A stretch of 64,000 nucleotides of DNA from the sequence record PZ445443.1; one strand, written 5' to 3'. A program made the translations under genes and the position numbers. Positions 16,646 through 29,815 of this stretch are shown here, piece after piece (position 1 is the first letter of the stretch; the number at the start of each line of letters is the position of its first letter). The DNA comes from a phage. The notes below the pieces were generated by a model. That model had not been told where the DNA came from, did not search any database, and saw only the letters and a list, made by a program, of their open reading frames with translations.

Positions 16646-17044
16646 ATGAAAACCACAACCTTTAATTTTGATAATGCCGACTTCTCTTTTTCTGATGTTA
16701 AAAGCTGCCGCCGTGATCGCGGATTCTACAAGGCCTATAATCTGGTGGGCCTGGACGATGACAATAATTTGCACGAAGTAGCTGAGATCCGGTATTATGC
16801 CGCCGCCAGCGGTAACACTCATTACTGTGTATTTTGGATTCACGACAACAAGAACAATAAGTACGGTTATACTGGCGGCAAGGCGAGCGGTCACGGTTAT
16901 GATAAAGCCAACGCTGCACTTGAAAGCGCATTAAGTGCCATGGGAATCACTGCCGACGGCTGGATCTATGAAGAAGAGTTTTTGGCGGCACTTGCTAACC
17001 ACTTGGGCTATAAAAAGCACATTGTAACATGCGCCCACGAATAA
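16646..17044 (+). CDS. hypothetical protein
   Basis: ATG after TAAGAGGA RBS. Confidence 0.55.
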   Translation: MKTTTFNFDNADFSFSDVKSCRRDRGFYKAYNLVGLDDDNNLHEVAEIRYYAAASGNTHYCVFWIHDNKNNKYGYTGGKASGHGYDKANAALESALSAMGITADGWIYEEEFLAALANHLGYKKHIVTCAHE

Positions 17045-17058
17045 AAAAAAAAAAATTA

Positions 17059-17086
17059 TTGACACGCTGCAAAATTCAAGTAAACT
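17059..17086 (+). promoter_or_regulatory. sigma70-like promoter with upstream A-tract
   Basis: A12 tract, TTGACA, 16 bp spacer, TAAACT; followed by hairpin GGCGGGAAACATCCCGCC. Confidence 0.55.
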
Positions 17087-17131
17087 AGGCACAAAAGGCG
17101 GGAAACATCCCGCCAACACAGAGGAAAAGCT

Positions 17132-17527
17132 ATGAATAAGAACGTACGCCGCATCATGAACGAACTGGCAAACGATGAAAAAATTATTGACATGCATTTG
17201 GTCAACATTTGCCGCCGTTGTGTAACATATAACAACCGCGCCGCAAAAGCGCGTGAGATGAACGCAAAAGGCACCTTAAAGCCCTTTCAGGTGGTTGTAA
17301 AATCTATAACTAATGCAGCAGGCCAGGCGCATGATCACAACAACGAGAGCACTAATATTGATCCGTCTTACGTAATGAAACGGATCCGGACTTGCAAGAA
17401 TAAAGAGCAGGTGTATAACGTCATAGATTGGCTTGATTCCATGGGCGACGTGGTTTATAATAGGTTTTCTGCAGCTATCGAGATCCAGCTTGACAGGTTG
17501 GACGGGAAAGTACTAAAAACTTATTAA
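17132..17527 (+). CDS. hypothetical protein
   Basis: ATG after AGAGGAAAAG RBS. Confidence 0.55.
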   Translation: MNKNVRRIMNELANDEKIIDMHLVNICRRCVTYNNRAAKAREMNAKGTLKPFQVVVKSITNAAGQAHDHNNESTNIDPSYVMKRIRTCKNKEQVYNVIDWLDSMGDVVYNRFSAAIEIQLDRLDGKVLKTY

Positions 17528-17528
17528 G

Positions 17529-17576
17529 CTTATTTTTAGATGGCCTTGACTCCAGGGCCATCAATAAAGTAAACTA
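17529..17576 (+). promoter_or_regulatory. repeated promoter/operator-like cassette, copy 1
   Basis: TTATTTTTAGATGGCCTTGACTCCAGGGCCATCAATAAAGTAAACT: T-rich tract, TTGACT, imperfect inverted repeat, TAAACT 18 bp downstream. Confidence 0.45.
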
Positions 17577-17608
17577 ACCACAGTTAAGCGGAAAAGGGGG
17601 GCTTGAAG

Positions 17609-17728
17609 ATGAGTACTACACGCCAACACACAAAGGTAACTATTATCGTTTGCATCATTGGTTACATCCTGGCGCAAATGTTGATGGGTAGCGCCAATGA
17701 TTTCGCAAAATTTTTCTTAAACTTTTAA
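17609..17728 (+). CDS. small hydrophobic peptide (39 aa)
   Basis: ATG after AAAAGGGGGG RBS; MSTTRQHTKVTIIVCIIGYILAQMLMGSANDFAKFFLNF; below ORF-track cutoff. Confidence 0.4.
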   Translation: MSTTRQHTKVTIIVCIIGYILAQMLMGSANDFAKFFLNF

Positions 17729-17756
17729 TTGACAAGCTAACTTAAATCAGTATAAT
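17729..17756 (+). promoter_or_regulatory. sigma70-like promoter
   Basis: TTGACA, 16 bp spacer, TATAAT. Confidence 0.6.
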
Positions 17757-17809
17757 ACTAAGCACATAAACGGGAAAACTTCCCAGAACACACAAAAGGA
17801 GAAAACATT

Positions 17810-18160
17810 ATGAATACTTCCATCACTATGACCACCGAAGAAAAAGCCCTGCAGATCGCCGCTCTGAAAAAACAGATTGCAGAACTGGAAGACAAGATCG
17901 ACAATTTTGAAATCGACGAAGACAAATACGATGATAAATATGATGAATGGTTGGACGAGATCCACGGCGAAATTATGATCGGTTGTATCTCTTTCCTCCC
18001 TTCACGTATCCTTAGGGAGCTGGATCCTATCGCTTACCGTTGCGGCTTTAGCGATTATATTGATAGCCTAGATATTGAAGATGACGAAGAATACCAGGAA
18101 TTGCAGACAGAGCTTGAAGAAGCAAAAGAAGAGCTTGCAGAACTGGAAGAAAACGAGTAA
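17810..18160 (+). CDS. hypothetical highly acidic protein (116 aa)
   Basis: ATG after AAAGGAGAA RBS; Asp/Glu-rich coiled-coil-like sequence. Confidence 0.55.
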   Translation: MNTSITMTTEEKALQIAALKKQIAELEDKIDNFEIDEDKYDDKYDEWLDEIHGEIMIGCISFLPSRILRELDPIAYRCGFSDYIDSLDIEDDEEYQELQTELEEAKEELAELEENE

Positions 18161-18210
18161 ATTTATTTTTAGATGGCCTTGACTCCAGGGCCATCAATAA
18201 AGTAAACTTT
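18161..18210 (+). promoter_or_regulatory. repeated promoter/operator-like cassette, copy 2
   Basis: Near-identical to 17529 copy. Confidence 0.45.
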
Positions 18211-18249
18211 ACACTGTTAACACTGAACTAATACAGAGGAGTTAAAACC

Positions 18250-18495
18250 ATGGCAGCACTAATCACCAAATATTATGCCCCTACCAACACCAAAAGCGCC
18301 CGTATCATGGTAAAAGGCTTCGGACGTAAAAAGGTTTACACCTGGGATTATTCCCTAGACATGGAAGACAACTACACCAACGCAATGACCGATTTTATTA
18401 ATGAACTAAATAAGCAGATCTTGACAAGTTATAAAGTGACAGATATTGCTTATATAGGTGAAGGCGGGATCTGTTTTGTGGGCATTGTGAAATAG
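18250..18495 (+). CDS. hypothetical protein
   Basis: ATG after AGAGGAG RBS. Confidence 0.55.
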   Translation: MAALITKYYAPTNTKSARIMVKGFGRKKVYTWDYSLDMEDNYTNAMTDFINELNKQILTSYKVTDIAYIGEGGICFVGIVK

Positions 18496-18545
18496 TTATT
18501 TTTTCGGTGGTCCTGGCTGCAGGGCCATCTATAAAGATAATTTAT
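18496..18545 (+). promoter_or_regulatory. repeated promoter/operator-like cassette, diverged copy
   Basis: TTATTTTTTCGGTGGTCCTGGCTGCAGGGCCATCTATAAAGATAAT shares the CAGGGCCATC(A/T)ATAAAG core. Confidence 0.4.
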
Positions 18546-18569
18546 TAACACCATGAAAGGAGAAAGTAC

Positions 18570-18923
18570 ATGATCAGCGGGGCTAGTTTTATTATTGGCG
18601 CTATTGCTACGGCTTTAATTGTAAACAAGATCCAGGATAAAAAGGAAAGAGGAAGTACCGCCCTTGCAGAATATCCATTTTGGACATTTAACGATAACGA
18701 AGATTATATTATAAAGTATAAAAATAAAGAGGGTGACCAAGTAACACCGCGACCGATCCCAGCTTACAAGATGCAGGAAACACTATACCGCCTGGAGGCG
18801 GGGGGCGCAAAAATTGTAGACTTTTGGGGATACGACCACACAGATCAGGAAGTTATAAAGCGCCGTATCCGGGCTATTCAGGCCAATATTGAAGTTAGCA
18901 AGGGGGGAATATATGAAAATTAA
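18570..18923 (+). CDS. hypothetical protein with N-terminal transmembrane segment
   Basis: ATG after AAAGGAGAAAG RBS; MISGASFIIGAIATALIV hydrophobic start. Confidence 0.5.
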   Translation: MISGASFIIGAIATALIVNKIQDKKERGSTALAEYPFWTFNDNEDYIIKYKNKEGDQVTPRPIPAYKMQETLYRLEAGGAKIVDFWGYDHTDQEVIKRRIRAIQANIEVSKGGIYEN

Positions 18924-19110
18924 TTTCGAGAAAATTGTAAAGCGCCCTCATGATTCCGAAGAGCTGCCAGAACGCCGCCAGCGTAACAATAAACTGAATA
19001 AGCCAAAAAGGTTTGGGAAGATCTGGCGTAATCATTATGATCGTAAATTGCCCGGCCTACTTTTGGAGCGTGAACGACAGGCAGAACGATACCGCCATAA
19101 AGACAAATAA
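18913..19110 (+). CDS. hypothetical basic protein
   Basis: ATG 18913 after AAGGGGGG RBS; Arg/Lys-rich. Confidence 0.45.
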   Translation: MKINFEKIVKRPHDSEELPERRQRNNKLNKPKRFGKIWRNHYDRKLPGLLLERERQAERYRHKDK

Positions 19111-19117
19111 CAACCAA

Positions 19118-19146
19118 CGCCCAGCCATTGTGCGGGGCTTTTTATT
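19118..19146 (+). terminator. rho-independent terminator
   Basis: GCCCAGC-CATTGT-GCGGGGC hairpin followed by TTTTTATTT. Confidence 0.6.
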
Positions 19147-19268
19147 TCTATCCTACGAATAGCGCCCCTGGTTGGCCCTGTAAGCGCCAAAAAGGCCCCC
19201 ACCTATGCAATCGCCCCCTTTAACCTGAAAACATCGCCCAGGGCCGTTTCATGGCGTTAAAAATATCA

Positions 19269-19296
19269 TTGACATCGTCAACAGGTTAGCTATACT
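19269..19296 (+). promoter_or_regulatory. sigma70-like promoter
   Basis: TTGACA, 16 bp spacer, TATACT. Confidence 0.55.
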
Positions 19297-19328
19297 AACC
19301 ACATCAAAGAGAGAAAGGAGTAAACGCC

Positions 19329-19601
19329 ATGCGTAAATTAAAAAATTTTGATAAAGTTGATGTTATCCTGAATAATTTTTACTACTGCAACAACAAGGCT
19401 ATTTGGTGGCGTGATAGTTCCACCGATAAAGTCAGGGCGCGCTTTCTTCAGGGGCACTGGCAAGGCCGCCCGGTGATTAAAATCATGGGGCAATTGGTAG
19501 CGTTTAAAAATTGCCGCCGTGTTGATGACGTTGAGGAGATTTTAAACATTTTGCGCCACAATAATTTAAAAAAAATAGTGTTGACAAGTAAGCCTCAATA
19601 A
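19329..19601 (+). CDS. hypothetical protein
   Basis: ATG after AAAGGAG RBS. Confidence 0.55.
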   Translation: MRKLKNFDKVDVILNNFYYCNNKAIWWRDSSTDKVRARFLQGHWQGRPVIKIMGQLVAFKNCRRVDDVEEILNILRHNNLKKIVLTSKPQ

Positions 19602-19608
19602 GTATACT
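19581..19608 (+). promoter_or_regulatory. sigma70-like promoter
   Basis: TTGACA, 16 bp spacer, TATACT; followed by hairpin GGCGGGAAAACTTCCCGCC. Confidence 0.55.
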
Positions 19609-19665
19609 TAAACACACAGGCGGGAAAACTTCCCGCCACTAACAAAGAAAATAGGAGAAAATATC

Positions 19666-20289
19666 ATGACCACCGTTAACATTACCGCAGGTTACAATTT
19701 ATCTTTCGACGTGCTGACCGACGAACAAAAAGAAAAAGCCGTTGAAATGGTCCGCGAAAGAGAAGAACACAGCGGGGATAACTTTTTTGCAGAAAGTGTA
19801 ATTGAATACTATAAAGAATATGTTTTTCCAGAGTATGGCCTTGAAGATACCGAAGTACATTGGTCAGGCTTTTGGTGCCAGGGTGACGGCGCGTCAATCA
19901 GTGCTGAAAACGTGGATTTAGAAAAATTTTTGCGTAAAGTAAAGGCCCTGACCAAGTTCCGATCAATTCGTCACTTGTTCGGCACAATGCACGATGGCGA
20001 GTTATCAGCCAGTGTTGAACGCGACAAGTACAGCCATTACAGCCATGAAAACACTGTAAGCGGGTACATTGATACCACTTGGCTAGATCTGACCGCCAAA
20101 CAAGAAAACAAAGTTGAAGAGCTGGAAGAGCTGATCACCGAGACGGTACGGGAGCTATCCCGCAAGGTTTACGTAGACCTGGAGGAGGCCTATCTTGAAC
20201 AGTTTACTACCGAAAACCTGATCGGCCTTATTGAAGCCAATGATTGGCGGTTTGATGTGGATGAATATGGGGAGATGAGTTTTTCATAA
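19666..20289 (+). CDS. hypothetical protein
   Basis: ATG after ATAGGAGAA RBS; 207 aa. Confidence 0.55.
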   Translation: MTTVNITAGYNLSFDVLTDEQKEKAVEMVREREEHSGDNFFAESVIEYYKEYVFPEYGLEDTEVHWSGFWCQGDGASISAENVDLEKFLRKVKALTKFRSIRHLFGTMHDGELSASVERDKYSHYSHENTVSGYIDTTWLDLTAKQENKVEELEELITETVRELSRKVYVDLEEAYLEQFTTENLIGLIEANDWRFDVDEYGEMSFS

Positions 20290-20297
20290 ATAAAGTG

Positions 20298-20325
20298 TTG
20301 CAATAATCTAAAAACCTGCTATATT
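20298..20325 (+). promoter_or_regulatory. sigma70-like promoter
   Basis: TTGCAA, 16 bp spacer, TATATT; followed by hairpin GGGGCGAGATGACTTGCCCC. Confidence 0.5.
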
Positions 20326-20378
20326 AAAACTCAAGGGGCGAGATGACTTGCCCCACACAAAACAAAGAGGATAACATC

Positions 20379-20759
20379 ATGAAAAACACCACCAAGGCCA
20401 TTGACACCGTTATGTTTAACCTGGTTACATTCCGTGAAGATATGAAAGATCTTCCACGTGAAACAGTGTGCGACCATATCGAAAACTATCGCAAACTTAT
20501 TAAAGAATTGCCATTGAAACGAGATCAGTACGCGGCTAACGCCATGCTTAACGCCATGATCAAAAAGATGATTCAGTGTGATTTAACTCTGGCCTATGAT
20601 TATGCAGGTGGTCGTTTTGCAGTATACAATCAGCCCGTGCCTGGTATGAGCACCACCGAAGAATTGCACGCGCTCAATCTAAAACAAGATGTGTGGGATA
20701 GTATGCCCCGCGTGGTGGTATGGGTAGAAAGCGGAAAGATTTACGGCGATAATTTTTAA
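20379..20759 (+). CDS. hypothetical protein
   Basis: ATG 20379 after AAGAGGA RBS. Confidence 0.5.
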   Translation: MKNTTKAIDTVMFNLVTFREDMKDLPRETVCDHIENYRKLIKELPLKRDQYAANAMLNAMIKKMIQCDLTLAYDYAGGRFAVYNQPVPGMSTTEELHALNLKQDVWDSMPRVVVWVESGKIYGDNF

Positions 20760-20826
20760 TCAGGTAACAGGCGGCGGCATATTTGCCGCCTTATTGTTAA
20801 TCAGAACTGTAAAAGAGGTACATAGA

Positions 20827-21198
20827 ATGGAATTTATCATTTTGGCTATATTAGTTGCCTTGTTTAACGCCTGGATCGCTGGCAAGATGGGTAGATCCGC
20901 CTTTTTATGGTTTATTATATCTATCTTCCTGGGAGTGGTTGCAACTATTGTATTGGTTATCCTTGCAATTGTTGACAAGGGGAATAATAGAAAGGGTAAA
21001 GTATTTTCAGACCTGTACGACGCTCAAACGTTTGTCAACGCCTATTATAGTGATCTTCCAGTCTCCCTACGTTGCAGCCTTGCACAACAGGTTTTCGATG
21101 AAGCTAAAACCAGAGATCACGCCCATGAGATTTGTTTAACTGAGGCGGATCGCCTATTTGAGAGGAATAGAAAATATGTGGACCAGCCGTTTAAATAA
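20827..21198 (+). CDS. putative membrane protein
   Basis: ATG 20827 after AAAGAGG RBS; two hydrophobic segments. Confidence 0.5.
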   Translation: MEFIILAILVALFNAWIAGKMGRSAFLWFIISIFLGVVATIVLVILAIVDKGNNRKGKVFSDLYDAQTFVNAYYSDLPVSLRCSLAQQVFDEAKTRDHAHEICLTEADRLFERNRKYVDQPFK

Positions 21199-21397
21199 TG
21201 CCACGTTAATTAACCCCTTTAGTGAAGATTTGAAGCCAGCCGCCTGGCGTGATGGATTCAATAACGAAAGCTTTATTTTCAGGCCTGATCTTAAGGAATT
21301 TTATAACAATGGATCGAACAACGACAGAGATAATTTTTCTTGTAATGTGCGTGGTGATAATACTCCTGGGGGCCATTGCAAACCACGTCACTGCTAA
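21176..21397 (+). CDS. hypothetical protein
   Basis: ATG 21176 after GAGGAA RBS. Confidence 0.4.
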   Translation: MWTSRLNNATLINPFSEDLKPAAWRDGFNNESFIFRPDLKEFYNNGSNNDRDNFSCNVRGDNTPGGHCKPRHC

Positions 21398-21417
21398 CAG
21401 GAGGGAAGGGGGAGACG

Positions 21418-21537
21418 ATGACACCCAAGGATAAGCCCCGCACCGATAAGGCGCGCCGTGTTATGGTATGGCTTGAGATCATCGCCCTTGAAATATTGTT
21501 AGGCGTAGGGATGTATTTTATCGCTGTAAGTAACTGA
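21418..21537 (+). CDS. small hydrophobic peptide (39 aa)
   Basis: ATG after AGGAGGGAAGGGGGAG RBS; followed by terminator. Confidence 0.4.
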   Translation: MTPKDKPRTDKARRVMVWLEIIALEILLGVGMYFIAVSN

Positions 21538-21541
21538 TAAC

Positions 21542-21578
21542 GGCCCCCGATCCCTGGGGGCCTAACTTTTTAATTTTT
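21542..21578 (+). terminator. rho-independent terminator
   Basis: GGCCCCC-GATCCCT-GGGGGCC hairpin followed by T-rich run. Confidence 0.65.
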
Positions 21579-21592
21579 TTTCTCCCTGGGTG

Positions 21593-21620
21593 TTGCAATC
21601 CGATCCAGAATATGGATAAT
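21593..21620 (+). promoter_or_regulatory. sigma70-like promoter
   Basis: TTGCAA, 16 bp spacer, GATAAT; spacer shares AATATGGATAATAA with promoter at 22759. Confidence 0.45.
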
Positions 21621-21679
21621 AACAATCAACGGGGAGACACTCCCCACCGCACAGACAAAGTTCCAAAAGGAGAAACAAA

Positions 21680-21880
21680 ATGAGCAATAATATCCGCGTT
21701 ATTAACTTCAAAAAAGAAGAAAAAATTGCTGTACTGGTTGATGGTCAAGAAATCTTCAAGGGCGATTATGAAGATCATCAAACGGCGATTAGTATCACTC
21801 GCGTGATTGGTTACCATAATTTCTACCCCCAAGGCGCTGAGGCAGCAGTTAAACGAATCAAAGAGATTGTAGGCCTGTAA
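21680..21880 (+). CDS. hypothetical protein
   Basis: ATG after AAAGGAGAAA RBS. Confidence 0.55.
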   Translation: MSNNIRVINFKKEEKIAVLVDGQEIFKGDYEDHQTAISITRVIGYHNFYPQGAEAAVKRIKEIVGL

Positions 21881-21930
21881 AATTTATTTTTAGATGGCCT
21901 TGACTCCAGGGCCATCAATAAAGTAAATTT
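21880..21930 (+). promoter_or_regulatory. repeated promoter/operator-like cassette, copy 3
   Basis: Near-identical to 17529 and 18161 copies; -10 candidate TAAATT. Confidence 0.45.
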
Positions 21931-21973
21931 AAACCCTGTTAAAATACCACGCAGTTAACAAGGAGTGATAGAC

Positions 21974-22273
21974 ATGTTTATCCAGGCTAATAATCTTTAT
22001 TTCTTTGATGGTCAGATCGTAGATGGTGTGGAAGTGGAGATCACCGGGTGCCCTGGCGGTCAGGCTATGACTTTCCGGAATAATGCCTTTGATGATTCTC
22101 ATATCGTTATGAAAATGGAAGTTACGAAGCTGGACGACAAGAAAGCACTCATTGACTATTCTGTGAAAGATCATCCAGACTACCACATGATCTATGGTGA
22201 TTTGTGCATTGTTGACCGTGACAAGGTAGGCGGCATTGTGATCGCTATTGTGAACGATGTTTTCTCAAACTAA
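21974..22273 (+). CDS. hypothetical protein
   Basis: ATG 21974 after AAGGAG RBS (track start GTG 21965). Confidence 0.5.
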   Translation: MFIQANNLYFFDGQIVDGVEVEITGCPGGQAMTFRNNAFDDSHIVMKMEVTKLDDKKALIDYSVKDHPDYHMIYGDLCIVDRDKVGGIVIAIVNDVFSN

Positions 22274-22290
22274 TTTCAGCAGGTGATTTT

Positions 22291-22641
22291 ATGAAAGTCA
22301 AACTATATTACCTTAATGAGCTTAACCCCCTTGCCCAGGTCCGCGCCCTGGCTAATACCTTGATTTGTGAGAAATCTGTATATTGTGTTGAGCTTAACGC
22401 CATGCGTGAACGTCTCAAAGGTGGTTACTTTGACATCCATGCTGCAATCAACGGCCTGAATATGGAATTTATACGCCTACGTAACAGCCGCCGGAATCTG
22501 GCAAGAATGGAACAAGATCCGGCCCACCTTCGTAAACTGGTTATTGAAAATCATCTGATGTTCAATGCCGAGGGTGATTATTACCATTTTAACCGCAAAC
22601 GTTGGTACCGTGGCGGCAATACAGACAAGGATGCAAAATAA
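22291..22641 (+). CDS. hypothetical protein
   Basis: ATG after AGGTGA RBS. Confidence 0.5.
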   Translation: MKVKLYYLNELNPLAQVRALANTLICEKSVYCVELNAMRERLKGGYFDIHAAINGLNMEFIRLRNSRRNLARMEQDPAHLRKLVIENHLMFNAEGDYYHFNRKRWYRGGNTDKDAK

Positions 22642-22677
22642 GGCCCCTAGCAGGGCCTGCAGCGATATAATCACATA

Positions 22678-22710
22678 AAGGCCATGCAACCGCATGGCCT
22701 TTATTATTTT
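22678..22710 (+). terminator. rho-independent terminator
   Basis: GGCCATGC-AACC-GCATGGCC hairpin followed by TTTATTATTTT. Confidence 0.7.
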
Positions 22711-22758
22711 GGCGTTACAACGGCATACGGAGCGCTTAAAAATTTTTTAAATAAGTAC

Positions 22759-22786
22759 TTGCATCATGTCCGACAATATGGATAAT
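22759..22786 (+). promoter_or_regulatory. sigma70-like promoter
   Basis: TTGCAT, 16 bp spacer, GATAAT. Confidence 0.45.
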
Positions 22787-22845
22787 AAGAGTTGTCGAAG
22801 GGGCTATGCCTCCAATCATTAACCGGATAGATAGGAGTTAAAATC

Positions 22846-23130
22846 ATGGCTATTGTTACCGCTGGTGATGTAGTAGAAATGGAAGCAAAATACTTAAAAA
22901 CTGGTATGCATATCCTACGCAACGATCTTGAACTGGTCCTGACAATGGTTGACTATAACCCAGGGCAAGATTATCCAAGTGTTGACTACTTTTTTGAGTA
23001 TGTCGATGAAGAGCTAAAAGAGGATGAGGCCTACTGCGGAGAATTCTGCAACTACTTTTGCCCTGACGAGGTTGTAAAAGTTATCTACCAACCTGGCGTA
23101 CCTTTCCCGCTACACGCTATCAATAAATAA
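22846..23130 (+). CDS. hypothetical protein
   Basis: ATG after ATAGGAG RBS. Confidence 0.55.
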   Translation: MAIVTAGDVVEMEAKYLKTGMHILRNDLELVLTMVDYNPGQDYPSVDYFFEYVDEELKEDEAYCGEFCNYFCPDEVVKVIYQPGVPFPLHAINK

Positions 23131-23185
23131 ACCTGGCGGGGCCGAAAAGGCCCCCAATTATGAAAATAAAGAGAGGCAAATCATC

Positions 23186-23419
23186 ATGATGGAACAAATT
23201 AAACGCGCCGAGGCTATTAATGGCAACGTGATCTATTTTGTCAGCAAAAACGAAAAAGGCGTACCCTATGCGGCGGTAATAGTACAGCCTGACGGCGATT
23301 ATTGGTGCACTGTGTACGGCGCTTATTCTTTTGGGCGTCCAGTGCATGATAAAATTTTGAAAGTAGCGAACCCTACCGGGAAAAATATCACAGCAGAAAA
23401 ATTTTTTGAAAATAGTTGA
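23186..23419 (+). CDS. hypothetical protein
   Basis: ATG after AAGAGAGG RBS; 5' UTR hairpin GGGGCCGAAAAGGCCCC. Confidence 0.55.
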   Translation: MMEQIKRAEAINGNVIYFVSKNEKGVPYAAVIVQPDGDYWCTVYGAYSFGRPVHDKILKVANPTGKNITAEKFFENS

Positions 23420-23443
23420 CACGACCATATAAGACTGTAGTAT
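23416..23443 (+). promoter_or_regulatory. sigma70-like promoter
   Basis: TTGACA, 16 bp spacer, TAGTAT. Confidence 0.45.
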
Positions 23444-23496
23444 ATAAATCAAAGGGGGGCAACAAGCCCCACCAACCACAAAGAGGATAAAAAATC

Positions 23497-23676
23497 ATGG
23501 CTATTATTGCAAAGACTGAGATCGTAGGCTTAGATTCTATTCTTCTCGCATATGAGGAAGCTATAGAAATGTATGTGGTTTCCTATGGTGAATATATCCG
23601 TGAATATAAATCTATTGATCTAGCTTTTGAATGTTATATTCGCCAGGTCAATAAAGCATATGATGATTATCGTTAA
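23497..23676 (+). CDS. hypothetical small protein (59 aa)
   Basis: ATG after AAGAGGATAA RBS with promoter and 5' hairpin; below ORF-track cutoff. Confidence 0.5.
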   Translation: MAIIAKTEIVGLDSILLAYEEAIEMYVVSYGEYIREYKSIDLAFECYIRQVNKAYDDYR

Positions 23677-23682
23677 AATAGT

Positions 23683-23710
23683 TTGACAACAGTCAACAAT
23701 CTGGTAAAGT
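23683..23710 (+). promoter_or_regulatory. sigma70-like promoter
   Basis: TTGACA, 16 bp spacer, TAAAGT; followed by hairpin GCGGGAATACTTCCCGC. Confidence 0.45.
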
Positions 23711-23758
23711 GTACTACATAGCGCGGGAATACTTCCCGCCATTAATGAGGATAATTTA

Positions 23759-23896
23759 ATGAAAACTTTCAACGCAACAGTCTCGACAATTGGTTATATT
23801 ATTACAGTACAAGCCGTGGATCTGGTAGCAGCAGCAAACAAGATTAAAAAGATGATTCCGCCAGGCAGTGAATTTTCCGTTTGGAAAGTAAAATAA
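23759..23896 (+). CDS. hypothetical small protein (45 aa)
   Basis: ATG after TGAGGA RBS; below ORF-track cutoff. Confidence 0.4.
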   Translation: MKTFNATVSTIGYIITVQAVDLVAAANKIKKMIPPGSEFSVWKVK

Positions 23897-23899
23897 ATC

Positions 23900-23927
23900 T
23901 TGACAATAGTTTATTACTTGATAGACT
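23900..23927 (+). promoter_or_regulatory. sigma70-like promoter
   Basis: TTGACA, 16 bp spacer, TAGACT. Confidence 0.4.
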
Positions 23928-24094
23928 GTATTTCGTAGGGCGGGGCAATAAGGCAACGCCCATTAATGATGGTAGAATCATGTTAGATAAAATTTTCACG
24001 GTTGTAGTAGTTGGCCTGGCATTATAGGTTGGAGTGGTTGCAACTATGGCTAACATGATCCTATCTTCCCATGGTATCGGTTAAGGTGAATCAA

Positions 24095-24310
24095 ATGATC
24101 ACGAATAAGACAGGTAAAACGGAATTCTTGCGCGGCTTGCAGATCGGCAAGCCAGAGATCTGGTATTGCACTAAAACACCACGTGACGAAATGAAAGACT
24201 TCACCGCCACGCTGCAACGGGTAAAGATATCCATCACGCAGAAAAAGGCCTTGATAGTGGTGGAAGGTGAGATCCCTCAAACCGTTGTTATAGTTGAGCG
24301 TACAGCATAG
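24095..24310 (+). CDS. hypothetical protein
   Basis: ATG 24095 after AAGGTGA RBS. Confidence 0.45.
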   Translation: MITNKTGKTEFLRGLQIGKPEIWYCTKTPRDEMKDFTATLQRVKISITQKKALIVVEGEIPQTVVIVERTA

Positions 24311-24401
24311 TTTAATTTATAGCGATACCTGAAAATTAACCAATAAATCATAAACAGGCGGTTACCGCCGCCTTAAACGTAGCAGAAAGAGGCTAGACAC
24401 A

Positions 24402-24686
24402 ATGAAAAAGATGATCGCAGTAGTTGCCCTGGTTGTTGGACTTAATGCACCTGTAATGGCTAAAGAGCTGGCAAAAGAGGTTAATCTAACGGATATCCAT
24501 GCCGTCAATCAAATCGGGGTTACTTATCGCTTATGCCTTGCCGCTAAAACTTTTAATGACGGTACAACAGAGTACTACGGATTCGAAGGTATCCGGTGCG
24601 GTGAGCTTGCTCGCGACCTTAAGGAAGATCCAGACCTGGAAGATCTGCCCATCACCGTAAACGGTAAAGCTTACGTAAACCGTTAA
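24402..24686 (+). CDS. putative secreted protein
   Basis: N-terminal signal-peptide-like MKKMIAVVALVVGLNAPVMA; ATG after AAAGAGG RBS. Confidence 0.55.
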   Translation: MKKMIAVVALVVGLNAPVMAKELAKEVNLTDIHAVNQIGVTYRLCLAAKTFNDGTTEYYGFEGIRCGELARDLKEDPDLEDLPITVNGKAYVNR

Positions 24687-24688
24687 CC

Positions 24689-24823
24689 ATGAGAAAGATA
24701 ATCATCACCTTGGGGATTGTGGCGGGATCGCTGGCGCTCTTTCCCCTTATGGTTAGGTATGTGCTGATCAGTATTGTCCTGGTAGTCAGTGATCTATTGG
24801 AAACGGTTGGCACCTTGTTTTAA
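24689..24823 (+). CDS. small hydrophobic peptide (44 aa)
   Basis: ATG 2 nt after upstream stop; MRKIIITLGIVAGSLALFPLMVRYVLISIVLVV...; no strong RBS. Confidence 0.3.
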   Translation: MRKIIITLGIVAGSLALFPLMVRYVLISIVLVVSDLLETVGTLF

Positions 24824-24835
24824 AGAGCGGTAAAA

Positions 24836-25027
24836 ATGAATATCGAACAAGTTAGAAAAGTATTAGCGGTACTGCGTTATCATAATCATAGAAAGGTCAT
24901 AGACGATCCTGATTATGTTGATTCAAGCCTGGAAGGGGATACACTACAAGCTATAAGTAACATGCAAGAATTGCTAAAGCGCATGACAGAGAAAAACCGA
25001 CCGGACTACATAGGCGAAAAAATATAA
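24836..25027 (+). CDS. hypothetical protein
   Basis: Co-oriented ORF followed by hairpin. Confidence 0.45.
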   Translation: MNIEQVRKVLAVLRYHNHRKVIDDPDYVDSSLEGDTLQAISNMQELLKRMTEKNRPDYIGEKI

Positions 25028-25043
25028 TATTTATAAACTACAA

Positions 25044-25071
25044 AACAGGGCTTGCAATGGTCCTGTTTTTT
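25044..25071 (+). terminator. putative intrinsic terminator
   Basis: AACAGGG...CCTGTT imperfect hairpin followed by TTTTTTG. Confidence 0.4.
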
Positions 25072-25155
25072 GTTATACTTGTTTCACGGCAGGCACCTGG
25101 CGACGGGTGGAGACAATCACCGGGCCTGCCTGTCATATAAGAACTATAAAAACCG

Positions 25156-25184
25156 TTGACATCTGCCATGGGGTGGGGTAACAT
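25156..25184 (+). promoter_or_regulatory. putative sigma70-like promoter
   Basis: TTGACA with weak TAACAT -10. Confidence 0.35.
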
Positions 25185-25238
25185 TTATCTTGAAGGGGCA
25201 AAAGTGCCCACACAACAACCAGGAGAGAGGAAAACACT

Positions 25239-25511
25239 ATGTCAAGCTGGATTAATCAAGAAGTCGAATCACGTTTTAATGCTATTTGGGATCTCATCGA
25301 AAAAGAGGACGGAACATCAAGCCCCTACCTCAACAATTTGGAATTCCATTTTGTGGAAGCGATGAACGCAGAACATGATCACGAAGGTGGCGCGGATGAG
25401 TTCGCTAAAGGTTATGGCTTTAACAATGCCAACGAAATGATCGAGGCGGTAGTACTCCAGGCTGAGGAAGATTATCAATTAAAAACGCTTGAATTCTGCC
25501 GCCATAAGTAA
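25239..25511 (+). CDS. hypothetical protein
   Basis: ATG after AGGAGAGAGG RBS. Confidence 0.55.
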   Translation: MSSWINQEVESRFNAIWDLIEKEDGTSSPYLNNLEFHFVEAMNAEHDHEGGADEFAKGYGFNNANEMIEAVVLQAEEDYQLKTLEFCRHK

Positions 25512-25571
25512 TAAGATAATGACACGGGCCAAAAGGCCCACTAATCAGAACCGCACAAAGAGGTAAACATC

Positions 25572-25835
25572 ATGAAACGTCTTGACCAGCTCAAACTAGT
25601 TCAATATATGGCTTATCGTGTTCTTGAAGTCCAGAAAGGTAGCAAAAAAGAGGTTTGCGAGAAAGCTTATAAGATCTTTACCCGCAAAAAAGATGACTGG
25701 ATGCTACGCCAGACCAAAAAAGCCGATATACTGGGGTACCTGGAAGAAGAGATCCGCCTTGAAGAACAAGAAGAGATCCGCCGTAGTGAGGCAGATTATC
25801 AGGCAGCTTGGGAAAACTGGATGAGCAACAAATAA
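25572..25835 (+). CDS. hypothetical protein
   Basis: ATG after AAGAGGTAAA RBS; 5' hairpin GGGCCAAAAGGCCC. Confidence 0.55.
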   Translation: MKRLDQLKLVQYMAYRVLEVQKGSKKEVCEKAYKIFTRKKDDWMLRQTKKADILGYLEEEIRLEEQEEIRRSEADYQAAWENWMSNK

Positions 25836-25903
25836 TACAACAAGTTACATGGTCAGGGGGGCAATAAAGCCCCTTGATCGCATGAAAATTATGCTATCTC
25901 TGG

Positions 25904-25981: not shown

Positions 25982-26401
25982 ATGAATATTAAATCTGATA
26001 ATCCGGCATATAGCTTTGATAACGCTTTTTGTCACGGTCCGGCGGCGAAAGGTTTTGAAATTGATGGTAAACTAGTTATTGTCAATGTTGACGGGGAAGA
26101 GGTTGCAGTGTATCCGGTGGCAGACGTTAAAAGCCGTTTACAATGCCGCATCGATGTTACCGCATATCAGCTTGATCCGGTCCGCGTAGTCTCCCTGGTC
26201 CTGGAGGAAGAAATCAAAGCAATGCACCACAGCAATAAGTTTATCGGTGACGCGCAAGATAATATGAAGGTATGCCGCTATAAAGTTAATGAAGTGCTTA
26301 AAGAATATGGATTTAAGGATCTGATGATCAAACGTGATGAAAAATTTCGTTATCGTAACGACCTGGCAAATCGAATCTATGAAATATACGAATCATTATA
26401 A
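25982..26401 (+). CDS. hypothetical protein
   Basis: ATG after TAAGAGGTAAA RBS; last gene of forward block. Confidence 0.55.
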   Translation: MNIKSDNPAYSFDNAFCHGPAAKGFEIDGKLVIVNVDGEEVAVYPVADVKSRLQCRIDVTAYQLDPVRVVSLVLEEEIKAMHHSNKFIGDAQDNMKVCRYKVNEVLKEYGFKDLMIKRDEKFRYRNDLANRIYEIYESL

Positions 26402-26420
26402 TTTTTTAACTGAATTATCA

Positions 26421-26444
26421 AGGGGCTTAGGCCCCTTTCTTTTT
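26421..26444 (+). terminator. rho-independent terminator
   Basis: AGGGGC-TTAG-GCCCCT hairpin followed by TTCTTTTT. Confidence 0.7.
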
Positions 26445-27052
26445 GTCTGCTCTTCCCCTACCATAAACGGCCATACATGGCAAGTGGAATAATTGACGAG
26501 CCATCAATCCCACACACTGTACAAATATACATGTAAAATAACTATTGCATAACTTTTCATTGTGTGGTAGCAGGGCCATTTTTACACGTTTTTCCTTCCA
26601 AAATTGCACGTAATGCAGCATTTGCACAAAATTTAACCTGATGCATATCTTCAATAGCTTGTCAACAACTAAAAATCTTTATAAGTCATACACTTACATA
26701 ACTACAAAAGCGTTTTCTACGTGAAAAATCGAGTATAACTATAGCCGCCAGACCTCAGAATTTACGTACGCTCGACATTCTATAGCCTGCTAAGCATTTA
26801 TTCCAACCATAGAATAACGGAATAGTCAATACCTGCATAAAATAATTATTCGTGTAAACTGCATAACATAAATCGGCCCAGGTGTCAACATTTTTCGTAA
26901 ACAGTCCGAAATTATCACTATGAGTTATCATAAACAGGGAAATCTTTAGTCGTCTAATGTTTACTGTACATTACTATACTGACTGGAATCATTAGATGAC
27001 TAAGAGAAAGATAAGAAATAATTAACAATACAATTATTTTATCTGTAACAAT

Positions 27053-27322
27053 AAGGCAACTATGCAAACGAATGGCATGGCGCGACGGAGTCGCGACATA
27101 ATATAAAAGCAGTAACCATCACCCCCGTGATAGTTTGTCTGCAAACTATTAATCAGATCATAGTTGCCTTGTATTTAGTTAATCATGACATAACAAGCAA
27201 GGCAACTATAGATCTGCTAATAGTTGCCCTGCTTTTATATTATGTCATAGAAACACCCGAAGGGGTGACCAAAGGTCACCTGGCATGGCCAGTGAAAGAT
27301 TATTAACTTGCTAATAGTTATC
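27053..27322. repeat. array of 11 bp motif AAGGCAACTAT in both orientations (about 5 copies)
   Basis: AAGGCAACTAT at 27053 and 27199; reverse complement ATAGTTGCCTT at 27160; close variants at 27220 and 27314; flanked by duplicated GCAAACGAATGGCATGGC (27064, 27325). Confidence 0.6.
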
Positions 27323-27354
27323 ATGCAAACGAATGGCATGGCTGATTATCGGTG

Positions 27355-27440
27355 TGTAAACAGTCAATCATGTAAATGGTTAGCATGTGAACAATCAGGA
27401 ATGTAAACAATCCAGTGTGTAAACTAATAGGTGTGTAAAA
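27355..27440. repeat. six phased TGTAAAC-like repeats at about 16 bp spacing
   Basis: TGTAAAC 27355, TGTAAAT 27371, TGTGAAC 27386, TGTAAAC 27402, TGTAAAC 27418, TGTAAAA 27434. Confidence 0.6.
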
Positions 27441-28029
27441 GTGTCATGTTGTGTCAGTTAGGTCACATTATGTCATATTGTGTCAGACAAGTTTTTCTCC
27501 TCTTTGTCAAGTGCTGCATGAAAAATTTACAATCTGGTATGGTAGCATTTTTGCGGCCCTGTTTACATTCAGGGGTGTATGTATAATCCTTGTTGTGTGG
27601 GCGTTTAGACGTCTGGACGGTCAGAAGTCTGCAGGTTAATATCTAATCTATTGGCTGCTAACTATATCCCACACAAATAGTAAGAAATATGATTGTTATA
27701 TGCGTAAACTGTAACTCATGTTATCAATCCCTGTATGTATCGCCAGTGGTGCGCATAATGGGTATTATGTTAAATTGCCCGTAATGATAAAGGTTCTCAC
27801 AATGATAGGTATTCTCATTCACCCCCACAAAATAGATTGCAAATGTTGTGCCACTGTGTGAACGGCCTAGCCTATTAATTTGCCTCACTGCCTCGATATT
27901 TGAGAATTGTTATAAGAATGAGAAGTATTCCCATTTCGTCCGCCTGGCAGCACTCCTGTAGGTCAGGTCAAAATCGTGGTAGAACTGGACCTGTTCAGAT
28001 ATTTCTGGCTGACTCTTCAGGTCTGTGTG

Positions 28030-28555
28030 GGAAAAGCCAACCTCTCCGGCGGGGCAGGGGATAGGTCAATTAAAAAATTTACGTGGTGTATGAAGCGCTC
28101 TTCAGGTAAGGCAGGTATTATGGGATGAAACCCTCTTCAGGCAATGATATTTGTGGGTGTGATATTTGCTGGAAAGCCAGATATGACGGGACTCCCGGCG
28201 GGGCAGGGGTGGTACAGACAGGGAAAATATGAAGGATGTGGTTGGGTAGATTGATCAGACAGGTAGAGTATGGAATATGTTACAAGTATGTTAAATATGG
28301 AGGTTGAATATCTGTAGGATTTGTGTGTAAAATCAAAGACTTAAGTGGTGTTGTGGTATTTTCTATAAATAATTCAAGTTTAATAGGTGATATTTGTCTC
28401 TATCCGCTTTGTGTGGTAAACAGATTCAGATGAGATTGGTTTACAAGTGTATACATAATATACAAATTAAAGATACAAGAAACCCCCCTCCCCCTTCGGC
28501 TACCATTCACCTTTTCCTCTGACTGGTACTTAAACACTTATTCAGACTCTTCAGG
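28030..28555. repeat. dispersed direct repeats CTCTTCAGG (x4) and CCGGCGGGGCAGGGG (x2)
   Basis: CTCTTCAGG at 28030, 28115, 28150, 28547; CCGGCGGGGCAGGGG at 28063 and 28212, each preceded by AAAGCCA. Confidence 0.55.
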
Positions 28556-28905
28556 TTATCACCTATATATCATATGGCAGTGACTGGTGTCCTCCGGCCC
28601 CTCTTTCGTCACCCGTCCGCTTCGCCATGCTAATGCCATAGCCAATGGTTCGGTTGTTCACCCTGTTCACTCAGGTGTATCTCCATACCCCTTCAAACCG
28701 AAGAGAACAGAAAACCCGAATTACTCGGTAAAAGAAAAGAGAAGAACTTAATTTTATCAGGATAGGCAAGAATGTCAAGGCATGACTGCTCACTAAACAA
28801 GCAAACAGTCATGTGTGGGAGGTAAGTGATTGTGGTGGTAGGAAATTTAGTTGAAAGATGTGTTATAGGTGCTTCCAGCACTTTAGCCGGGCAGCTAATT
28901 GTGTG

Positions 28906-29121
28906 TCAGTCCAGCGGTTCATCCTCTACTTCACTGAAATCAATGTTCATGGTCTCCTCCCAACCATCGATCTCAGCACAAGAGTGGAGTTCTTTAGGGT
29001 TTACTCCCAAAGCCTCAGCAACAGAGTCTATATTTAACACCTCTGGCAGGTATGATTCATCAAATTCAAGGTAAATCAGGCCACGAGTGTTGTCAGCCCC
29101 ACCAAATATTTCTATCTTCAT
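28906..29121 (-). CDS. hypothetical small acidic protein (MKIEI-type N-terminus)
   Basis: ATG after AGGAGA RBS; last gene of reverse block. Confidence 0.5.
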   Translation of the reverse strand: MKIEIFGGADNTRGLIYLEFDESYLPEVLNIDSVAEALGVNPKELHSCAEIDGWEETMNIDFSEVEDEPLD

Positions 29122-29242
29122 GAAATCTCCTCTGGAAATGAGAGTGTGAACAGGGTTTTATGCGTTCCAATACGCTGGAATTATACACGTTTGCCTCTTC
29201 AGGCCATGCTTTAGCATGAGGAACCTGTGTGGGCTCGGTGCT

Positions 29243-29656
29243 TCATAGTCTACCACCTCTGAACTCTTCGTGCTCAGGCATAATAGAGAACCAGATATCT
29301 ACGATGTCTCCCCACGTTAGGTCATCAGCCTCAGGATCTACCTGGAGCGAAGATGGAGAATCTTCAGAATCGAAGTTTTCCTCTTTCACTGGCTCAGCCA
29401 AGGGACATATAGCCACTCCTTTGGATGTCTCTTCAGATGCATGTGTGTTTATCATGTTCCACCCGTGAGTATTCCGGCAACAGCCACTATGGACGTAATG
29501 ATCATCAGAATCACCACCAAAACCTCTGACAATGTTTTCATTGTGTATCCCATATTCTCCAAACGATGTGTGGATACTATCACTGGAGCGACAATGTGTC
29601 AACAGAAACGCCGCGAGGGTTTGGTTAAAATCCGAGCGTATGGTGATTTGGGTCAA
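29243..29656 (-). CDS. hypothetical protein (start uncertain)
   Basis: Co-oriented ORF; acidic C-terminal half; alternative ATG at 29455 would give 70 aa. Confidence 0.35.
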   Translation of the reverse strand: MTQITIRSDFNQTLAAFLLTHCRSSDSIHTSFGEYGIHNENIVRGFGGDSDDHYVHSGCCRNTHGWNMINTHASEETSKGVAICPLAEPVKEENFDSEDSPSSLQVDPEADDLTWGDIVDIWFSIMPEHEEFRGGRL

Positions 29657-29815
29657 AACGGACGTGCGTTCTCGCTACGCTCGAAATATAGAGTTGTTTG
29701 CAGGAAGCTCTTAAACGCTCTGTAATGAGATTAACTACCCAAGGTATGCAATCGTGCACCAGATAAAGAAAAGGACGCCACAGAGCGTCCTAGGTGTCTT
29801 AAATTTGATATTTTG

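Follow-up and report, generated by a model that had tools for sequence, protein, structure and literature searches.

GC-rich hairpins behind strong promoters in the small-gene array of a Vequintavirus-like phage: candidate stem-loops of PeSL-like cassettes

The phage sequence record PZ445443.1 was analysed over a stretch of 64,000 nucleotides (the window), with attention to a short GC-rich hairpin that recurs between promoter and ribosome-binding site in an array of small forward genes. The array occupies positions 17000–25600, a segment that matches rV5-like E. coli myophages of the genus Vequintavirus over its full length with 92–95% identity, the close matches being EdH4, Alma, slur16, FFH2 and rV5; the genome that carries the hairpins is Vequintavirus-like and not a T4-type myovirus. 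Its genes encode 39–207 amino acids each, and nearly all of their products are labelled 'hypothetical protein'. According to GC skew and open-reading-frame calls, a plus-strand unit extends to ~27 kb and a minus-strand unit runs from 29.8 kb on, with a gene-poor interval at 26.5–29.8 kb between the two. No tRNA gene was found anywhere in the window.

Promoters, hairpins and start codons were marked in every intergenic region, with all coordinates verified by script. At 17.0–25.3 kb, eight small genes of the forward strand, together with two weak cases (hairpins at 17772 and 22800), share a common layout: a near-consensus sigma-70 promoter, a GC hairpin of 5–8 bp, an open A/C-rich leader, a strong Shine-Dalgarno (SD) sequence and the ATG (Table 1). 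The promoters feature TTGACA or TTGCAA at −35 and TAnnnT at −10, separated by 16 nt and once by 17 nt. In the eight regular cassettes the first base of the stem lies 10–13 nt past the last base of the −10 element, and the distance from hairpin to ATG ranges from 17 to 34 nt, such that the hairpin is fixed to the promoter and loose to the start codon; the SD sequence reads AGGAG or AAGAGG. All stems place the G-rich arm first and the C-rich arm second, with predicted energies of −6.8 to −13.6 kcal/mol; at least six different stems occupy the same position, with loops of 3–5 nt and one of 14 nt. Over a set of 42 cassettes, compiled from the window, Phapecoctavirus and Justusliebigvirus, the leader is composed of 59% A, 15% C, 15% T and 11% G. 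The layout of promoter, GC hairpin, CA-rich spacer, ribosome-binding site and ATG that the original prediction had described is real and conserved. The motif GCGGGAA-N3-TTCCCGC, said there to recur at 17097, 19619 and 23717, is exact at 19620 and 23723 (two occurrences in the window against 0.07 expected by chance), and the copy at 17097 is a variant differing by a 1-nt indel. The other hairpins listed are present at or within a few bases of their given places, those at 24356–24373 and 25526–25539 being without a recognisable promoter; four further ones (20769–20791, 21631–21645, 23138–23154 and 25196–25209) had not been listed.

Table 1. Cassettes, promoter-less hairpins and composite repeats of the small-gene array (promoters as −35, spacer length in nt, −10; energies in kcal/mol).
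Feature	Position	Strand	Promoter	Hairpin	Downstream gene
Cassette 1	17059–17114	+	TTGACA (17059–17064), TAAACT (17081–17086)	17097–17114, GGCGGGA-AACA-TCCCGCC, 7 bp, −12.8	17132–17527
Cassette 2 (weak)	17729–17784	+	TTGACA-16-TATAAT (consensus)	17772–17784, GGGAA-AAC-TTCCC, 5 bp, 16 nt past −10, z −2.2	17810–18160
Cassette 3	19581–19637	+	TTGACA-16-TATACT	19619–19637, GGCGGGAA-AAC-TTCCCGCC, 8 bp, −13.1	19666–20289
Cassette 4	20298–20354	+	TTGCAA-16-TATATT	20335–20354, 8 bp, −13.6	20379–20759
Cassette 5	21593–21645	+	TTGCAA-16-GATAAT	21631–21645, 6 bp, loop ACA	21680–21880
Cassette 6 (degenerate here)	22759–22812	+	TTGCAT-16-GATAAT	22800–22812 (weak), GGGGC-TAT-GCCTC, unstructured in folding, z +0.25	22846–23130
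Cassette 7	23416–23470	+	TTGACA-16-TAGTAT	23456–23470, GGGGC-AACAA-GCCCC	23497–23676
Cassette 8	23683–23739	+	TTGACA-16-TAAAGT; initial transcribed sequence gtactacatagc	23723–23739, GCGGGAA-TAC-TTCCCGC	23759–23896
Cassette 9	23900–23961	+	TTGACA-16-TAGACT	23938–23961, interrupted GGGCG..CGCCC, z −4.4	small open reading frame from 23980
Cassette 10	25156–25209	+	TTGACA-17-TAACAT	25196–25209, GGGCA-AAAG-TGCCC	25239–25511
Promoter-less hairpin	20769–20791	+		AGGCGGCGG-CATAT-TTGCCGCCT, then T-rich tail TTATTGTT	20827–21198
Promoter-less hairpin	23138–23154	+		GGGGCC-GAAAA-GGCCCC	ATG 23186, 31 nt on
Promoter-less hairpin	24356–24373	+		AGGCGGT-TACC-GCCGCCT	ATG 24402, 28 nt on
Promoter-less hairpin	25526–25539	+		GGGCC-AAAA-GGCCC	ATG 25572, 32 nt on
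63-nt repeat, copy 1	17525–17587	+			
63-nt repeat, copy 2	18158–18220	+			
63-nt repeat, copy 3	18492–18554	+			
63-nt repeat, copy 4	21879–21941	+			

The arrangement exceeds what chance would give. Under strict criteria (promoter of at least 10/12, perfect stem, dG ≤ −6), five promoters on the plus strand of the window are followed by a hairpin that starts 9–14 nt past the −10 element, against 0.4 expected (Poisson 6e-5). When five genomes of two subfamilies were pooled, 41 hairpin starts fell into the bin of 10–19 nt, and the other 10-nt bins held 0–12, mostly 2–8. In the predicted 5' untranslated regions the hairpin is the minimum-energy structure and the SD sequence remains open, with z values of −4.8 to −1.3, cassette 6 excepted. 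Assuming a start 7 nt past the −10 element, the stem would begin at +4 to +7 and leave ~3–6 unpaired bases at the 5' end; in 10 of the 42 related cassettes outer pairs (GUAGG...CCUAC) extend to the predicted +1. Together with the promoter-anchored spacing, these outer pairs point to a function linked to the RNA 5' end in the geometry of the window. The 5'-terminal placement proposed originally would fit the cassettes in spacing and in the few unpaired bases, with starts that are predicted; it cannot be taken for granted at the four hairpins without promoter. Hairpin cassettes are confined to the orphan-gene array at 17.0–25.3 kb. Directly 5' of the −35 element of cassette 1 lies a run of 13 A at 17044–17057 whose length differs by 3–8 nt among relatives; it may be an A-tract resembling an UP element and prone to slippage.

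Conservation was followed in 11 close relatives (11 loci of ~85–95% identity). The −35 hexamer shows no difference in 402 comparisons, and divergence amounts to 0.04 for the −10 element, 0.05 for the start region, 0.10 for the promoter spacer and 0.30 for the loops; the invariance of the −35 and the low divergence of the −10 element speak for real promoters. Among the hairpins, 28 orthologous variants lose on average 1.8 kcal/mol, compared with 5.1 kcal/mol for an equal number of random edits (Wilcoxon p = 1.4e-4, to be taken as indicative for variants that are not phylogenetically independent), which suggests that pairing, not sequence, is conserved. Along these lines, the orthologues of the 20335 hairpin comprise several different versions of stem and loop, all of which fold. 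The site orthologous to 22800 forms a good hairpin of a G-run and a C-run, either GGGGGG..CCCCCC or GGAGG..CCTCC, and provides the one compensatory change that was seen, from GGGGG/CCCCC to GGAGG/CCTCC. At the site orthologous to 23723, four unrelated hairpins occur in other phages, each with its own downstream gene, and the stems at 25196–25209 are identical in the 11 relatives. An alignment of 44 paralogous hairpins with MAFFT and RNAalifold gave no consensus structure, their differing stem and loop lengths being out of register, and a scan of the whole window against Rfam gave no match at the gathering score; support was drawn from the positional enrichment and the orthologue stability test in place of a covariance model.

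The loops deserve separate mention. Between close relatives they are found inverted with the stems unchanged, at 17104–17107 and 19627–19629 (loci L001 and L010–L017): at 17097 the loop ACA becomes TGT, the relatives reading GGCGGGAA-TGT-TTCCCGCC, and at 19619 AAC becomes GTT (L017), a further relative (L003) showing a C-to-T change that gives a G.U pair. Loop divergence is three times that of neutral sites, and the inversion looks like palindrome-mediated strand switching. Despite these flips, loop orientation is biased, with 26 GT-rich against 4 AC-rich loops on stems of the GCGG type and none against 9 on stems of the GGGGC type, which suggests selection on one strand. In phage V18 (L013) a run of 16 G stands in place of the 5' arm at the site orthologous to 22800; it is a case of homopolymer instability or a sequencing artefact.

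A 93-nt cassette query matched 139 phage records. Phapecoctavirus tuntematon and Justusliebigvirus EmilieFrey (Stephanstirmvirinae) have the same design, in very stereotyped form, in their small-gene arrays, where TTGACA-N16-TAAGAT-gtatcacatagg is followed by GGCGGGAA(A/G)-TGG-TTTCCCGCC or by GGGCGGCA-ATGG-TGCCGCTC and the stems start 9–15 nt past the −10 element, with a mode of 11–12 nt; the hairpin type of cassette 9 is present in both genera as well. A stricter scan added 5–7 further cassettes each in a CR3-like Vequintavirinae phage and in WPEC2. In SSBI34, a CR3-like Salmonella phage of the Vequintavirinae (L026), GGGCGAC-ACAAC-GTCGCCC stands at the same offset; in its segment 11544–18810 the −10 element also lies seven times in the loop of a 10–14 bp hairpin (e.g. 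TTTATGCCTGGTA-CATAAT-ACTAGGCATAGG), and a GC hairpin exactly fills the spacer between −35 and −10 five times. Scans of IMG/VR returned few contigs, all of them rV5-like or phAPEC8-like; the exact pattern was met in only six, five of them of 137–153 kb. Stem sequences are specific to the lineage, each genus having its own stem types. Within a genome, paralogous cassettes have unrelated promoter spacers and at the same time similar start regions (gtatCACATAGg) and stems (GGCGGGAA.. or GGCGGCA..), so that the similarity appears to be maintained and not just a matter of recent copying; recent duplication as the source of the repeated stem was ruled out on the same ground.

Two further sets of hairpins in the array do not follow the common layout. 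Four intergenic hairpins (20769, 23138, 24356 and 25526) lie 28–35 nt before a start codon without a recognisable sigma-70 promoter upstream, and for these a 5'-terminal position cannot be assumed. The first of them, with its T-rich tail, looks like a weak terminator. The hairpin at 23138–23154 has a pentaloop resembling lambda boxB, which is kept in most relatives, and a decayed copy of the element is present at 19177–19210, in the non-coding stretch before gene 19329. The other set is a composite 63-nt repeat in four copies, 62–100% identical, which consists of a T-run and then a 10-bp hairpin GATGGCCTTG-ACTC-CAGGGCCATC (−16.3 kcal/mol) enclosing a −35 element, TTGACT, with the −10 element TAAACT 18 nt later. 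This makes it a different type of cassette geometry, in which the hairpin covers the −35 element.

The arrangement resembles the promoter-early stem-loop (PeSL) cassettes of phages RB49 and phi1, in which a strong sigma-70-like promoter, a polyG...polyC stem-loop, an SD sequence and an ATG stand upstream of orphan genes of the hyperplastic regions (PMC2839356). Arbiol et al. (2010, PMC2839356) distinguished five classes by the position of the stem-loop and described PeSLs as recombination points at which genes are deleted, inserted and swapped; mini-circles arise by recombination between cassettes (PMC2839356). The window hairpins appear to be the stem-loop halves of PeSL-like cassettes that head early orphan genes of a hyperplastic array, PeSLs being the closest known kind. 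The promoter-embedded class, the commonest in RB49, is not the main form of the window, where 8–10 cassettes carry the hairpin past the −10 element (by 10–16 nt) and four carry it over the −35; the RB49-like classes with the hairpin in the spacer or the −10 element in the loop are present in SSBI34. A literature search found no report of PeSL-like cassettes for rV5-like or phi92-like phages, and no RB49 homologue of gene 25239–25511 was among the 40 matches listed.

The kinship extends to gene exchange, a context that the original prediction had missed: the cassettes are places where relatives swap genes. Breakpoints of indels and replacements among the relatives fall at cassettes (17575/18162, 23720–23753, 23922–23961, 25540–25575 and 25875/26421), and different genes follow the same promoter in different relatives. 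The breakpoints at 17575/18162 belong to a deletion in an IMG/VR contig (L002) that joins copies 1 and 2 of the 63-nt repeat; those at 23720–23753 and 23922–23961 lie at cassettes 8 and 9, respectively. Five relatives carry an extra gene that has a copy of the leader 25540–25575, which lies just after the hairpin 25526–25539, on either side. The breakpoints at 25875/26421 coincide with two GGGGC..GCCCCTT hairpins, and five relatives lack exactly the intervening segment with gene 25982–26401; these hairpins, at 25856–25875 (GGGGGGC..GCCCCTT) and 26420–26437 (AAGGGGC..GCCCCTT), flank that gene together with its promoter. At the DNA level, the conserved cassettes would provide the homology for gain, loss and swapping of orphan genes.

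As to function, the favoured reading makes the hairpin an element of transcript boundaries, which would shield the 5' end of the mRNA it heads and serve elsewhere as insulator and 3' barrier, within a cassette that would also act as a recombination linker; belief and doubt in this reading are about evenly balanced. Host RNA polymerase would start at the near-consensus sigma-70 promoter, and the G-first, C-second hairpin of 5–8 bp would be transcribed within ~3–6 nt. On its own mRNA the hairpin would base-pair the 5' end and hinder RppH as well as 5'-end-dependent entry of RNase E, with the initiating ribosome covering the short leader beside it. On read-through RNA from an upstream cassette, and at the promoter-less sites, it would insulate the ribosome-binding site from upstream sequence and act as a barrier to 3' exonucleases. 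The sequences themselves show the anatomy, the constant spacing, the preserved structure, the lack of U-tracts and the breakpoints at cassettes; the start sites, the stabilisation and the roles as barrier and insulator are inferred. In E. coli, stem-loops at the 5' end are an established means of mRNA stabilisation, RppH and RNase E both requiring an unpaired 5' end (reviewed in PMC3997798). The rV5 genome paper puts gp11 forward as a homologue of T4 Srd, a protein that stimulates RNase E (PMC4980113); a link between gp11 and the 5' hairpins is speculative.

A number of observations weigh against protection of the 5' end. Stems diverge at 0.09, a near-neutral rate comparable to those of third codon positions and promoter spacers; three of the 11 relatives (L010, L013 and L014) have lost the 23456 hairpin, and the 22800 hairpin is degenerate in the window. 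Internal mismatches are G.T in three cases and A.C in five, and with no excess of G.T the mismatch test offers no proof of selection at the RNA level. In many SSBI34 cassettes the hairpin occupies the spacer or surrounds the −10 element and lies outside the cassette's own RNA, so that 5'-end protection cannot be the sole role. The 27 strong (≥10/12) minus-strand promoters of the window and its strong plus-strand promoters at 0.8–16.6 kb have no hairpin at the same offset; they constitute an internal control by which the feature is specific to the 17.0–25.3 kb array, and by the same token the hairpin is not a general need of early mRNAs. RppH of B. subtilis needs only 2–3 unpaired bases (PMC3997798), and the 3–6 predicted here may still admit the enzyme. 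A literature search found no mapped start site or transcriptome for this phage group. Finally, when a single PeSL stem-loop of RB49 was inserted ahead of lacZ behind a strong promoter, expression fell to the same extent as with rrnB T1 (PMC2839356).

This last result also speaks for a terminator or attenuator of the PeSL type, which would stop or damp transcription entering from the preceding cassette, and perhaps also that of its own very strong promoter, and so insulate each orphan gene transcriptionally. The records of Alma and HdK5 annotate several of the hairpins as terminators, terminators are listed under the EdH4 match as well, the hairpins inside SSBI34 promoters would be present only in upstream read-through RNA, and a T-rich tail does follow the promoter-less hairpin 20769–20791, the single instance of its kind. 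In the rV5 genome paper, which catalogues promoters and terminators, the hairpin arrangement is not described. Over the 42 cassettes, however, the 10 nt after the hairpin contain on average 1.3 T, with at most one T in 27 and none in 12, whereas the window has true terminators with T-tracts at 21542, 22675, 25042 and 26420; lacking a U-tract, the cassette hairpins are not canonical terminators, and the earlier idea that some double as leaky terminators found no support in the sequence. Furthermore, the stems are short (5–8 bp), the hairpins sit downstream of the −10 element of the next gene and not before its promoter, termination at +5 to +25 would cut short the very RNAs that the cassette initiates, and the tight spacing to the −10 would be unnecessary for termination. 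Taken together, a terminator or attenuator is an unlikely account of the post-promoter hairpins. Terminators of the minus strand were flagged by a consensus scan owing to the A-rich upstream flank and were rejected, with tails that are poor (TGTGTGTTTA, ATTGTTATTA) and inconsistent. Among other RNA classes, lambda-type nut sites (boxA plus boxB) were discarded on account of the varying loops (AAC, ACA, TAC, ATGA, AAAG) and the absence of a shared boxA-like sequence, GAAAA being confined to 23138–23154; hairpin promoters of the N4 virion polymerase, considered in view of the 3-nt loops, were set aside on account of the clear sigma-70 promoters upstream.

Less favoured still is recognition by a phage factor co-evolving in each genus, be it an RNA-binding regulator or nuclease guide at 5' ends or a protein that binds a DNA operator near +13 and silences the early array. 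The features that would suit such a site are the gtatCACATAGg start region and the stem that paralogous cassettes share in spite of unrelated spacers, the genus-specific stem types, the conserved loop orientation and the recurrence of GCGGGAA-N3-TTCCCGC. The multiplicity of stems and loops at one and the same position, the inversion of loops between close relatives without other change and the loss of the hairpin at some sites all run counter to it, and no candidate binding protein has been identified; in addition, a lineage-specific stem consensus is also found in the PeSLs of other T4-type phages, where it was ascribed to recombination (Comeau et al. 2014, PMC4122927). Equally improbable is a more far-reaching variant, in which the start region CACATAGG and the genus-specific stem (GGCGGGAA..TTCCCGCC or GGGCGAC..GTCGCCC) would form the site of a phage factor, an RNA-binding protein or a DNA operator protein, that turns the whole array on or off in concert, or of a dedicated recombination function that captures and moves orphan-gene cassettes in integron-like fashion across rV5-like and phi92/phAPEC8-like phages.

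A purely DNA-level element, with the GC palindromes beside the promoters as recombination linkers or by-products of cassette shuffling and without any RNA function, would account for the coincidence of deletion, insertion and replacement breakpoints with hairpins and cassettes, for loops that evolve rapidly and invert as palindromes do, and for the confinement to a hyperplastic orphan-gene array of cassettes between whose PeSL counterparts mini-circles form, but it is given little credence, as recombination needs homology and not a hairpin, and precise spacing to the start site, kept pairing and strand-biased loops would be unexpected of a by-product.

Some neighbouring observations may be added. 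The gene-poor interval 26500–29800 between the converging units is dense in short repeats, including TGTAAAC-type iterons at 27355–27440, ATAGTTGCC inverted repeats at 27046–27237 and exact direct repeats of 20 and 15 nt; a replication origin is one possible reading, and the interval may correspond to the 'non-coding' box of the rV5 genome map. Furthermore, 22 GenBank records titled 'Campylobacter phage' (host C. jejuni) match positions 17000–25600, with 88–95% identity in the four listed; these records look like mislabelled entries or E. coli phage contaminants.

The cassettes matter in several respects. A label of Rho-independent terminator is probably wrong for hairpins that lie downstream of a promoter and have no U-tract, and elsewhere such hairpins are ignored by annotation. 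The PeSL idea would gain two more subfamilies of large coliphages beyond the T4-type phages and thereby become a general design of hyperplastic regions. With the predicted post-start geometry, a single genome contains dozens of strong promoters, some bearing a 5' hairpin and others not, which amounts to a natural experiment on 5' structure and the fate of mRNA during infection. The cassettes are also compact candidates for strong, context-insulated expression units in engineering.

Among known systems, intrinsic terminators resemble the window hairpins as GC-rich intergenic structures that annotation software scores as terminators, and they differ in that the window hairpins lack a U-tract, have short stems and lie downstream of the next gene's promoter. 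REP-type hairpins are intercistronic barriers to 3' exonucleases in polycistronic mRNAs, host repeats with their own consensus. Stable, U-tract-free hairpins between cistrons would fit the four promoter-less hairpins and the read-through RNA, whereas the cassette hairpins belong to promoters and vary in sequence. The leader of T7 gene 10 opens with a stem-loop. Closer to the proposed role are the 5' stem-loops of E. coli ompA and papA (Emory, Bouvet and Belasco 1992; Arnold et al. 1998; Bricker and Belasco 1999, cited in PMC3997798), in which a stable hairpin near the 5' end likewise stands ahead of an open leader with a strong ribosome-binding site, and structure matters rather than sequence; these are known from individual genes whose 5' ends have been mapped and whose half-lives have been measured, whereas the window element is repeated and stereotyped at many promoters, with predicted starts and 3–6 unpaired bases. 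The closest match is the PeSL of the T4-type phages RB49/phi1, PST/T4 and nt-1/KVP40, which has in common with the cassettes the near-consensus sigma-70 early promoter with its AT-rich upstream region, the G-run-first, C-run-second stem-loop, the SD sequence and ATG of a small orphan gene, the dense hyperplastic arrays, lineage-specific stems, breakpoints at cassettes and several stem-loop geometries. The differences are that one stem-loop of RB49 has a demonstrated role as terminator, whereas the window hairpins are known from sequence and have no U-tract; that the lineage is here Vequintavirinae and Stephanstirmvirinae and not T4-type; and that the stem-loop lies within the predicted transcript, 10–13 nt past the −10 element, instead of mostly between −35 and −10 or over the −10 as in RB49. 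What is new here is thus a candidate PeSL-like cassette in a new lineage, with a predicted post-start geometry.

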